Virus record (IMG/VR): IMGVR_UViG_2703718824_000015
Length of the DNA stretch: 10,462 nt
From: a virus
Taxonomy: Duplodnaviria > Heunggongvirae > Uroviricota > Caudoviricetes
Reading direction: 5' to 3' (one strand)
Part shown: piece by piece, positions 3,273 to 5,022 of the stretch
Layout of the letters: every line of letters begins with the position of its first letter
Numbering within the stretch: the stretch's first letter is position 1
The notes under the pieces: generated by a model
The model's database searches: none
What the model was told of the DNA's origin: nothing
Seen by the model: only the letters and a program-made list of their open reading frames with translations
Translations under genes and position numbers: made by a program

Positions 3273-3521
3273 ATGGTACATGACCGCATAGCGGAGGAAC
3301 TCGAGGCAAAAGGCTTTTACCGGAGGGCGTCGGCGCGATGGGGTGAAGTCATGCAACTGGTGGAGACAGACAAGGAACGGCATCAGGTTACGATGCGACG
3401 GCTGGAATGTTCCAGGAAGGCACAGAGGCCACCGGAGCCGCCAACGGAGAACTACGCAGACCTGAGAAATGCAGTAAATCGCACTTACGCAGACATGGGG
3501 CTGAGCAAATTAGCAGAGTAG
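3273..3521 (+). CDS. PerC-family transcriptional activator homologue
   Basis: 82-aa product MVHDRIAEELEAKGFYRRASARWGEVMQLVETDKERH... matches the PerC/Pch signature (E.LE.KG.[WY]RRAA.RW..V.....E.ER); start chosen at ATG 3273 (GAGGGGG 6 nt upstream) rather than the ORF-track start 3153, which would overlap the SSB gene. Confidence 0.65.
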   Translation: MVHDRIAEELEAKGFYRRASARWGEVMQLVETDKERHQVTMRRLECSRKAQRPPEPPTENYADLRNAVNRTYADMGLSKLAE

Positions 3522-3543: not shown

Positions 3544-3566
3544 AGCCGGAGCAATCCGGCTTTTTG
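3544..3566 (+). terminator. rho-independent terminator after the PerC-like gene
   Basis: Stem AGCCGGA / TCCGGCT with GCAA loop, followed by a TTTTT run extended by further T-tracts. Confidence 0.5.
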
Positions 3567-3825
3567 TTATTTTTTGTAAATTATTTGTTCGTGGTTGTTC
3601 CACGTTGTTCACTGAGCGGATCGGCATATTTTACCCGAACTGAATCATGATTATTCTCGCCCGTGGTGCCAGGACGCTGGGGCCACTTTCCCGCCTGTTA
3701 ATGTGCTCGCCAATATTCATTACCAGGCGGGAAAACGATCGGTGCGATTGCTGATTTCCTTATGAAAAACGGTTGAGTGTTTGCCGCGTCCTGGAGTTCC
3801 TTACTTAACCCCAGGACTTTTTTTT
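3567..3825 (+). promoter_or_regulatory. structured intergenic region upstream of the head operon (phased T-tract/TTGTTC repeats, 11-bp inverted repeat, hairpin plus T8); probable late promoter/control region
   Basis: TTGTTA 3564, TTGTAA 3575, TTGTTC 3585, 3595, 3605 at about 10-bp phasing; perfect inverted repeat TTTCCCGCCTG 3687-3697 / CAGGCGGGAAA 3724-3734; GTCCTGG 3788-3794 / CCAGGAC 3811-3817 followed by T8 abutting the capsid ATG. Confidence 0.3.
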
Positions 3826-4983
3826 ATGCCGAGAATAATCGAATTACGCCAGCAGAAAACCGCCATTAAAAATCAGATGCGCGACATGCTGGAGAACGCT
3901 GAAAAAGAAAACCGCAGTCTTAACGATGCTGAGGGCGCAAAATTTGACGAATTACGCGCTAAAGCTGAATCCCTCGATAAAGACATTTCCCGCCTTGAAG
4001 CCATTGCAGACGAAGAGCGCAGCAAGCCAGGTAAAAGCAGTCAGACCACTGACCCCGCAGAACTACGAAACTACATTCTGACGGGTGAAACCCGCGCATT
4101 AAGTACAGGCGTTCCCGCTGATGGTGGTTATACCGTTATCCCCGAACTGAACACCGAAATCATGCGAATGCTGACGGATGAATCCACCATGCGCCGCATC
4201 TGTACCGTGAAGAAAATCAGCAGCAACGAGTTTAAGCAGCTTGTTTCCGCTGGCGGTGCGACCGTTAACCACGGTGAAGAGGGTAAGGCACGCGAACAGA
4301 CCAGCACCCCGCAGATTAACGAGGTGAGCATTAAGCTGTATCCGGTCTATGCGTACCCGCGCACCACACAGGAAATCGTGGATTTTTCCGATGTGGACAT
4401 CCTTTCATGGCTGACGGGTGAGATTGGCGACACCTTCACGGAAACCGAAGAAAGCGATCTGGTTGTGGGCGACGGTGACAAAAAAGCAAAAGGTTTTTTA
4501 TCCGTACCCCGTGCAGAGAAGAACGACAAAGAGCGTGATTTTGGTACGTTGCAGGTAATTAAACCTTCCGAATCTCTGGCGTGGACATCTGCGGACCCGT
4601 TGATCGACCTGAAATTTGCATTACGTAAAAAATACCGCAAAAACGCGGTCTGGGTGGTTAACTCCACGACGGCGGCAAAACTTCAGAAGGTGAAGAACGC
4701 GAACGGTGATTACATCTGGCGCGACCGTTTACAGGCGGGTGATCCTGATACGTTGCTGGGCCTTCCGGTCGAATATCTGGAGTTTATGCCTGATAACGTT
4801 ATTGCCCTGGGTGACTTCAAACGCGGTTACTACATTGTTGATCACGAAACAGGTGTTCGCACCAGACCGGACAACCTCACAGAGCCGGGCTTCATCAAAA
4901 TTTTCACGCAGAAATATTTAGGCGGTGGCGTGGTGGATTCGAACGCGATCAAGATTCTGGAACTGCCACAGGACGACGATTAA
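3826..4983 (+). CDS. major capsid protein, HK97 family, with N-terminal coiled-coil (delta/scaffold-like) domain
   Basis: 385-aa product; charged N-terminal region predicted coiled-coil (ELRQQKTAIKNQMRDMLENAEKENRSL...), then HK97-type capsid body with C-terminal GDPDTLLGLPV and GDFKRGYYIVD motifs; start set at first ATG (3826), the ORF track extends to TTG 3781; no obvious SD. Confidence 0.85.
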   Translation: MPRIIELRQQKTAIKNQMRDMLENAEKENRSLNDAEGAKFDELRAKAESLDKDISRLEAIADEERSKPGKSSQTTDPAELRNYILTGETRALSTGVPADGGYTVIPELNTEIMRMLTDESTMRRICTVKKISSNEFKQLVSAGGATVNHGEEGKAREQTSTPQINEVSIKLYPVYAYPRTTQEIVDFSDVDILSWLTGEIGDTFTETEESDLVVGDGDKKAKGFLSVPRAEKNDKERDFGTLQVIKPSESLAWTSADPLIDLKFALRKKYRKNAVWVVNSTTAAKLQKVKNANGDYIWRDRLQAGDPDTLLGLPVEYLEFMPDNVIALGDFKRGYYIVDHETGVRTRPDNLTEPGFIKIFTQKYLGGGVVDSNAIKILELPQDDD

Positions 4984-4994
4984 CAGCATACAGA

Positions 4995-5022
4995 AGGGGC
5001 TTAAAAGCCCCTTTAGTGTTTT
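4995..5022 (+). terminator. putative intrinsic terminator/attenuator after the capsid gene
   Basis: Stem AGGGGCT / AGCCCCT with TAAA loop followed by TTTAGTGTTTT. Confidence 0.4.

Follow-up and report, generated by a model that had tools for sequence, protein, structure and literature searches.

To our knowledge, phage-inducible chromosomal islands (PICIs) of the capsid-forming kind (cf-PICIs) are the only satellites that build capsids of their own. They release tail-less, DNA-filled capsids even when no helper phage is present. In this work we analyzed the control region ahead of the major capsid gene in a viral stretch of 10,462 nucleotides (IMG/VR record IMGVR_UViG_2703718824_000015), the whole of which is called the window below. 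Judged by gene content and synteny, which match those of EcCIEDL933, the window is an EcCIEDL933-type cf-PICI, a phage satellite with the same gene organization as that prototype (10.1101/2022.09.08.507074). Tail-less cf-PICI capsids are reported to be made at a high level without a helper phage, in non-lysogenic cells, and over-expression of alpA has been used to drive the reproduction of EcCIEDL933 (10.1101/2025.02.11.637232). In the cf-PICI literature that we searched, no regulation of the packaging operon was described beyond the requirement for AlpA.

Several described systems resemble the region. In attenuators and riboswitch platforms (trp, pyrBI, T-box) three mutually exclusive elements share a leader, and a terminator with its U-tract lies directly before the first gene. 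Lambdoid PR'/6S RNA/tR'/Q units and the Pseudomonas alpB/tB/AlpA unit consist of a promoter, a short terminated transcript, late genes and internal terminators (PMC7969949, PMC9371919). HK022 put places two adjacent stem-loops, about 70 nt in all, at the 5′ end of a transcript and upstream of terminators; those of putL span approximately +3 to +72 (PMC9378689). Finally, hairpins that sequester a Shine-Dalgarno (SD) sequence and U-rich S1 enhancers (MS2 coat, ribosome standby) put a stable hairpin over the ribosome-binding region of a strongly expressed structural gene or a U-run before its start (PMC5934652).

We read the control region as the promoter of the packaging operon (capsid, protease, portal and so on to terminase) followed by an attenuator-type leader that would couple transcriptional read-through to ribosome access, and consider this reading to have about an even chance of being correct. 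The predicted leader RNA begins at approximately 3663, is about 160 nt long and is composed of a 5′-terminal hairpin (P1), a long hairpin (P2), a linker and a final hairpin whose U8 run meets the capsid ATG (Table 1). As in the attenuators, three exclusive elements end in a terminator directly before the first gene, and the antiterminator has the advantage as long as the terminator 3′ arm is untranscribed. Unlike them, the leader has no leader peptide, tRNA-binding module or conserved ligand pocket and is absent from Rfam. A further difference is that the U-tract runs up to the start codon and SD-like bases lie in the terminator 3′ arm, so that one hairpin would control both termination and initiation. 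This final hairpin probably gates capsid production as a terminator and as a mask of the ribosome site. From the SD-sequestering hairpins and S1 enhancers the leader differs in having a dedicated upstream competitor, P1, and, in the leader class to which the window belongs (class A), the full anatomy of a terminator.

Table 1. Features of the capsid control region and their positions in the window
Feature	Position	Strand	Description
Intrinsic-terminator-like hairpin and T-run	3544-3571 (hairpin 3544-3561, AGCCGGAGCAATCCGGCT)	+	Terminator scan: 7 pairs, 5 of them G-C, loop of 4, T-rich tail
TTGT(T/A)(A/C) array, five copies	3564-3610	+	Includes the box TTTGTAAATTATTTGT at 3573-3588
Putative sigma-70 core promoter	-35 TTTACC 3630-3635; -10 TATTCT 3652-3657	+	16-nt spacer; 8/12 consensus; predicted start at about G3663
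P1, 5′-terminal hairpin	3663-3686	+	GTGGT-G-CCAG-GACG-CTGG-G-GCCAC
P2, long hairpin	Arms 3687-3703 / 3718-3734	+	14-nt loop; 17 nt at 94% complementarity
Linker	3735-3785	+	Two weak predicted hairpins, about 3737-3756 and 3770-3786
Four-codon mini-ORF (open reading frame), ATG AAA AAC GGT TGA (ATGAAAAACGGTTGA)	3764-3778	+	No SD; not conserved, absent from the relative L127
Candidate terminator/sequestor	3786-3825; hairpin 3788-3798 / 3807-3817, U8 3818-3825	+	GTCCTGG(A)GTT / AAC(C)CCAGGAC
AGGA, the only SD-like core	3813-3816	+	Part of the final-hairpin 3′ arm, 9 nt ahead of the ATG
Major capsid gene, HK97 fold	3826-4983	+	ATG 3826, PGAP-annotated start

Final hairpin and predicted alternative pairing in the leader

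The capsid protein or its alignment was used to search three collections. From the 175 loci obtained, about 110 unique upstream regions were kept; their capsids were at least 60% identical to that of the window. Four leader classes were seen among these relatives. Class A is the type found in the window. Class B is the majority and includes a second E. coli type, Citrobacter, Erwinia, Rosenbergiella and many viral and metagenome contigs. Class C has the same promoter module followed by a short, A/C-rich, unstructured leader, and in class D a true AGGAG lies inside a hairpin arm.

A hairpin followed by T8 had been noted immediately before the capsid ATG in a first-pass annotation made from the window alone. 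It is indeed present, and folding of 3788-3817 gave a dG of -14.1 kcal/mol (z -3.98). Its anatomy is that of an intrinsic terminator, with a G+C-rich stem-loop and a U-tract that follows at once, and it is predicted to terminate transcription at U8. The simple terminator scan missed the window hairpin owing to an A-C mismatch; in the allele of the relative L016 the same scan called a terminator whose 11 pairs precede a C and T7. L016, L026 and L127 carry C-to-T and other substitutions that leave the stem intact.

The same annotation held that the capsid ATG has no recognizable SD. This has to be amended in part, because a 4-nt AGGA core exists; what stands is that it is weak and buried in the hairpin. 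Its pairing with the anti-SD is worth -4.0 kcal/mol, as against -6 to -12 kcal/mol for most other genes of the window. To judge from these values, the capsid SD is weak and masked rather than absent. The median anti-SD energy was -4.0 in class A, -3.5 in class B, about +1 in class C and -6.5 in class D. By this measure the SD is weak or absent throughout the family; only that of class D is stronger, and it lies in a hairpin arm. The U8 run is a possible landing site for ribosomal protein S1. The capsid start itself appears secure: besides being the annotated start, ATG 3826 matches, in an alignment with five capsid homologues of 69-75% identity, their invariant M1. An ORF start at TTG 3781 was rejected, as it would run through the hairpin and the U-tract and the homologues give it no support.

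A similar arrangement is found at the next gene. The protease ATG (5023) is directly preceded by a 9-pair terminator-like hairpin (4993-5014) and a T-run (GAAGGGGCTTAAAAGCCCCTTT then AGTGTTTT, 4993-5022), and the protease gene has no SD (anti-SD dG -0.1). This second hairpin may set the ratio of capsid to protease and portal. Transcription of the whole operon must accordingly pass at least two terminator-like sites, which implies control of read-through inside the operon.

A possible competitor of the final hairpin is found in P1, which holds a copy (CCAGGAC) of the 3′ arm of that hairpin. The 5′ inner arm and loop of P1, CCAGGACGC (3669-3677), are complementary at nine of nine positions to the region of the final-hairpin 5′ arm, GCGTCCTGG (3786-3794). 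A complement of at least 9 nt to this arm occurred in 0.16% of shuffled leaders (P = 0.0016). When folds of the growing transcript were computed, the antiterminator helix with P1 open was the minimum-energy fold for 3′ ends from 3797 to 3810. In the complete transcript P1 together with the terminator wins by 6.5 kcal/mol (-60.6 vs -54.1 for the constrained fold), and the terminator fold has a probability of 0.999 at equilibrium. Thus a segment upstream can pair with the 5′ arm of the terminator and so exclude the terminator, and this competitor is itself held in P1. The P1 5′ arm and loop are a candidate antiterminator/anti-sequestor, and the P1 3′ arm, CTGG, is a candidate anti-antiterminator. 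The suggestion made in the first-pass annotation, that the capsid gene is under antitermination control or has an unusual initiation, is a reasonable one given a hairpin and T8 in a terminator/antiterminator layout that masks the sole SD-like bases.

Comparable pairings were found in two other classes. In class B the P1 loop and 3′ arm, GACGUGA, face UCACGUC on the 5′ side of the last hairpin, and 97% of the cells in the alignment are paired. A U-to-G change in the P1 3′ arm is matched in four sequences by A-to-C changes both in its partner within P1 and in its distal partner, and the A-to-G and C-to-U changes in the class-B loop retain wobble pairs. The two folds of class B are separated by 6.3 kcal/mol. 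In class D an early segment, CATGCGGG, copies the SD-bearing arm, CATGUAGGAG; the sequence is unrelated to that of the other classes, and here the open form has the lowest energy. Classes A and B share the loop-to-distal pairing GACG:CGUC. Overall, by predicted pairing, three of the at least four leader classes carry the competitor/sequestor design, and the relatives support the logic of three elements more than they support any exact sequence.

The leader as a whole folds better than its shuffled versions (z -4.5 for 3600-3860 and z -3.25 for 3664-3855). The class-B homologue of P1 is GTGGC-A-CTCA-GACG-TGAG-CC-GCCAC: it has the same GACG loop, its inner helix is CTCA/TGAG vs CCAG/CTGG in class A, and compensatory changes between A and B are found in both helices. 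The sequence of P1 is nearly invariant. At least 120 viral contigs carry the class-B P1 motif, and 80 of them were checked for a capsid start. For 78 of these 80, the distance from the motif to a cf-PICI capsid start downstream of it was 120-146 nt by an automatic rule; a capsid start was recognized by eye in L207, and one contig ends too soon to judge. The P1 motif can be used as a mark of cf-PICI capsid operons in sequence data.

The inverted repeat of 11 bp (3687-3697 / 3724-3734) listed in the first-pass annotation was confirmed and found to extend to the 17-nt arms of P2. In 80 distinct class-B leaders the specified P1-P2-P3 structure pairs in 90% of the cells, and in 33-46% when the partners are slid by 1-3 columns. 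Eleven of the 12 pairs of the class-B P2 outer stem are changed on both sides, several G-U pairs being among those observed, and three such doubly changed pairs were found in P1. The P2 stems GGCCGTTTAA, GTCCACCCGG, GCCGCCTGAC and GGCAGCTTACTC and that of the window, TTTCCCGCCTG, have no sequence in common. P2 is variable in sequence, in length and even in topology. The linker segment is replaced in L127 and was given little weight.

That the leader encodes a leader peptide is unlikely. The mini-ORF ATGAAAAACGGTTGA is missing from L127, and some class-B leaders have an in-frame upstream ATG where others have AGG, ACG or AGT.

The relative L127 (SKEG01003675.1) deserves separate mention. Its capsid is only 69% identical overall, yet both the leader and the N-terminus (MPRIIELRQQ) are of class A, which suggests a recombination event that moved the leader and the first codons as one module.

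We also looked for the leader outside the cf-PICIs. Rfam at a permissive threshold gave matches at chance level and no family, and a literature search for the exact leader sequences found no paper. A search of a phage collection found no real phage that shares any leader class, apart from an unexamined partial match in a 106-kb Klebsiella phage record; the other matches covering most of the leader were to a 16.5-kb record labelled 'induced prophage' and to a short Salmonella record. Within the scope of Rfam and the literature searched, the leader RNA family and its promoter module are undescribed, while the type of mechanism is well known.

Putative promoter module and predicted transcript start

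The first-pass annotation listed an intrinsic terminator at the head of the region and, after it, five phased TTGT(T/A)(A/C) elements. The terminator was found by the scan at 3544-3561; it would end the upstream (replication/perC) transcription unit and insulate the capsid promoter. The elements start at 3564, 3574, 3585, 3595 and 3605, all on the + strand, with spacings of 10, 11, 10 and 10 bp. The whole window contains 14 such hexamers with both strands counted, and none of 300 dinucleotide shuffles of the window had four or more of them in 47 nt. Since the array lies upstream of the presumed transcript start, it is best described as a DNA-level upstream promoter element, probably the site of some protein or a curvature/bend element.

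The box TTTGTAAATTATTTGT occurs once in the island. In 111 of 112 unique class A and B relatives, 85-88 nt separate its TGTAAA core from the first base of P1 downstream (88 bp from the presumed start in the window), and the sole exception is L016, whose promoter has been swapped. The box region is common to the second E. coli cf-PICI type, whose leader otherwise differs. Between the box and the -35 the sequence is lineage-specific and the length is kept: GTTGTTC repeats are present in the E. coli types, and other lineages have either CATGTTT repeats or a terminator hairpin with a T-run that extends into the -35.

For the core promoter, 99 unique class-B upstream regions were aligned on the first base of P1. 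Conservation peaks were observed at TTT (-33 to -31, within TTT(A/T)C(A/T)) and at TAT(c)TT (-11 to -6), separated by a T-rich 16-nt spacer; T1, A2 and T6 of the -10 are conserved in 96-99% of the regions. The spacer also carries a conserved element, TTTTTCATG / ATCATG. In L014, of the second E. coli cf-PICI type, the scan calls TTTACA-16-TATGTT (9/12) at the same position. Because this -35/-10 pattern sits at a fixed distance from P1, a sigma-70 start at the first base of P1 is likely, and transcription in the window would start near G3663. The L016 locus provides a natural experiment that supports the same start. All of its DNA upstream of P1 is exchanged for unrelated sequence, which supplies TTGCGA-16-TATAAT (10/12) ending 6 nt before P1.

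Three other readings of this DNA were rejected. An alternative -10 hexamer, GATTAT, has G in place of the critical second-position A in several alleles. TGGCAC in the class-B P1 is not followed by the -12 element that a sigma-54 promoter needs. TGTAAA...TTTAC has a spacing of 15-52 nt instead of the 6 nt of a TyrR box.

The proposal that transcription here depends on a helper or an activator fared differently in its two parts. A weak core below a conserved element at a fixed distance fits an activator input. Dependence on a helper phage is not supported, as cf-PICI capsids are reported at a high level without one (10.1101/2025.02.11.637232).

Proposed mechanism and rival explanations

In the mechanism that we favour, transcription would proceed from the weak sigma-70 core under the box/TTGT module of fixed geometry and begin at approximately G3663. 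With P1 closed, the terminator/sequestor would form, transcription would stop at U8, and any read-through mRNA would be poorly translated with its AGGA hidden. If P1 were opened or out-competed, CCAGGACGC would pair with the terminator 5′ arm, GCGUCCUGG, and RNA polymerase would enter the capsid gene; the same state would expose AGGA and the U-tract to the ribosome. Switching between the two folds is itself inferred. It might be triggered by an RNA-binding protein that the island makes once AlpA is induced, or result from kinetic competition while the leader is being transcribed. A factor from a helper phage is unlikely in this role because capsids are reported to be made at a high level in non-lysogenic cells and alpA over-expression drives the reproduction of EcCIEDL933. 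The outcome is a regulatory anatomy that can be tested, with a promoter of fixed geometry, a near-universal box and modular leader RNAs, which likely form a joint transcription/translation gate on the most abundant structural protein. It may help to find the factor that times capsid production and to engineer PICI-based delivery particles.

A number of observations weigh against this mechanism. The 19 unique variants of class A are mostly more than 98% identical, and there is no covariation in the antiterminator helix of the window itself. In class B the alternative pairing rests on one compensated position in four sequences plus wobble changes. Double changes are missing from the last hairpin of class B, as is a U-tract, and termination is consequently not a family-wide feature. 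The window core promoter, at 8/12, is below the threshold of the scan and was not called, and both the start near 3663 and termination at U8 are predictions from sequence. No sensor (aptamer, tRNA module or leader peptide) was identified in the leader and Rfam gave no match, though a protein could act as sensor; P2 is the largest element, but its sequence varies too much for a ligand pocket. Finally, class C manages without a structured leader, which is therefore dispensable for the life cycle.

A static leader is an explanation that we regard as somewhat unlikely. P1 would then stabilize the 5′ end, P2 would be a stabilizer or an RNase III site, and the hairpin with U8 would be a leaky terminator and S1 enhancer; read-through would be low and fixed, and expression would be set by promoter activity and island copy number. 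It fits this explanation that P1 begins at the presumed +1, that the terminator fold is the one of minimum energy and dominates at equilibrium, and that no sensor was found. The second hairpin and T-run before the SD-less protease ATG likewise suggest a general style of expression, not a sensor. In the E. coli rnd leader, too, a hairpin is reportedly followed by a U8 run that is needed for translation. A static leader leaves unexplained, however, the 9-nt copy of a terminator arm in P1, the distal compensation of the change in the P1 3′ arm, and the appearance of the same three-element logic in class D from a different sequence.

Processive antitermination is in our judgement unlikely. Here the polymerase would be made termination-resistant by the nascent P1-P2 RNA in the manner of HK022 put, or else by a protein that, like lambda Q and Pseudomonas AlpA, is loaded at the promoter; the modified enzyme would pass both the leader terminator and the hairpin at 4993-5014, and the unmodified one would yield only the 160-nt RNA. 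The general layout agrees with that of the lambdoid and Pseudomonas units, in that a promoter and a short terminated RNA precede late genes and a further internal terminator-like site. P1 and P2 occupy 72 nt (3663-3734) from the 5′ end of the predicted transcript, much like the two stem-loops of putL, and lie upstream of terminators. The near-invariance of P1 and the conserved element in the promoter spacer are further points in favour of such a mechanism.

The specific comparisons were less favourable to it. No sequence similarity was found to HK022 put, to the HK022 late region or to any phage, and a comparison of the HK022 genome with the leader gave only short matches at chance level. P2 is hypervariable, unlike stem II of put, which makes specific contacts and is conserved, and P1 complements the downstream hairpin, a property that put does not need. 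P1 showed no conserved -10-like pause element. In sequence searches of Pfam and the PDB, no Q-like or 21Q antiterminator was recognized among the small proteins of the island. Pseudomonas AlpA is 21Q-like, with residues numbered past 140 (PMC9371919), whereas the island AlpA is a 62-aa PF05930 protein; a phmmer search of the latter against solved structures returned one AlpA-family chain (8c3t) and no Pseudomonas AlpA. Antitermination of the Pseudomonas AlpA kind was therefore rejected as a coincidence of names. In addition, class B leaders have no terminator to bypass, and, unlike in the lambdoid and Pseudomonas units, no helper factor is required.

It is quite unlikely, in our view, that P1-P2 represents a new satellite-specific regulatory RNA that goes beyond attenuation, whether by put-like read-through of the internal terminators that evolved independently (protein-independent or assisted by a ProQ/FinO-family protein) or by action of the terminated 160-nt RNA in trans on transcripts of the helper phage or the host. 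If it did act in trans, the leader RNA would add an RNA layer to the conflict between satellite and helper.

Very unlikely is the narrower possibility that the 160-nt unit from promoter to terminator serves chiefly as a trans-acting small RNA (sRNA), for example on mRNAs of the helper phage or the host. A compact structured RNA that ends in a hairpin and U8 is typical of Hfq- and ProQ-binding sRNAs, and sister cf-PICIs do encode a ProQ/FinO-family protein. Against this, class B has homologous P1 and P2 without a terminator and would release no discrete sRNA, the constant placement of the P1 motif relative to the capsid start fits a role in cis, and no matching sRNA family or paper was found. 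That the inverted repeats serve as DNA operators, with palindromes bound by a dimeric repressor or activator, is scarcely tenable: the 17-bp repeat is nearly perfect and the complementary strand of the leader also folds well (z -2.66), but the repeats lie downstream of the presumed start, in sense orientation and with a U-tract, and as pairing in P2 is kept while the sequence changes, and as G-U pairs are tolerated that work only in + strand RNA, the comparative data identify the repeat as an RNA hairpin.

Island context and minor observations

The 801 bases around the control region are 99-100% identical to a chromosomal island of hundreds of E. coli genomes, and in the best-matching record this island is flanked by roxA and phoQ. 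There it encodes, in order, an integrase, a 62-aa AlpA-family regulator, small ORFs, DUF4222, a RepA helicase, SSB and a PerC-family protein. The major capsid protein, an HK97-type protease, portal, head closure, connector, HNH and the small and large terminase come next. In the window the perC stop codon (3521) and the capsid ATG are 304 bp apart, and the control region fills this gap. The PerC-family gene directly upstream of it (3273-3521; PF06069, E 1e-35) was considered as the source of a dedicated activator, a role that comparison does not support: the upstream neighbour of the leader varies with the lineage and may encode PerC or a small protein of another family, or may lie on the opposite strand. 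We know of no function of PerC-like genes of PICIs within the island.

A small protein family of about 74-90 aa has no Pfam match and shows a C-terminal motif like ...HGF...SGE.LA...EQ.D.LIE.L.... It is not present in the window and is often encoded just upstream of the box TTTGTAAAT (L003, L090, L129, L120, L067; L177 742-966). In the sister island L177 its gene is inserted between perC and the leader, with a copy of the terminator on either flank; CFT073-type islands also share this terminator.

In the second E. coli cf-PICI type a ProQ/FinO-family RNA chaperone is encoded two genes upstream of the structured leader (L014 3209-3739, L015 3190-3732). This protein of the sister islands is a candidate partner of the leader RNA.

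Directly after the RepA helicase gene, positions 2296-2531 are densely filled with GGTAGA-type iterons such as TGGGTAGAGGG and CAGGTAGA, which occur in both orientations and are separated by AT-rich spacers. This array is almost certainly the replication origin of the island. The TTGT array was also considered for that role and rejected, being unrelated to the GGTAGA iterons, which adjoin repA. At the edge of the origin, right after the repA stop codon, ATTTTTTGTAAA (2289-2301) repeats the core of the capsid-promoter box (3569-3581); this could be due to chance or to a shared protein site.

Finally, 3649-3659 (GATTATTCTCG) is a perfect 11-nt complement of capsid codons 2-5 (3830-3840, CGAGAATAATC). 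It was kept out of the model, as it overlaps the -10, lies upstream of the presumed start, is absent from L016 and has one base changed in some alleles. The pairing could matter only on transcripts arriving from upstream, in which the start region could be masked.

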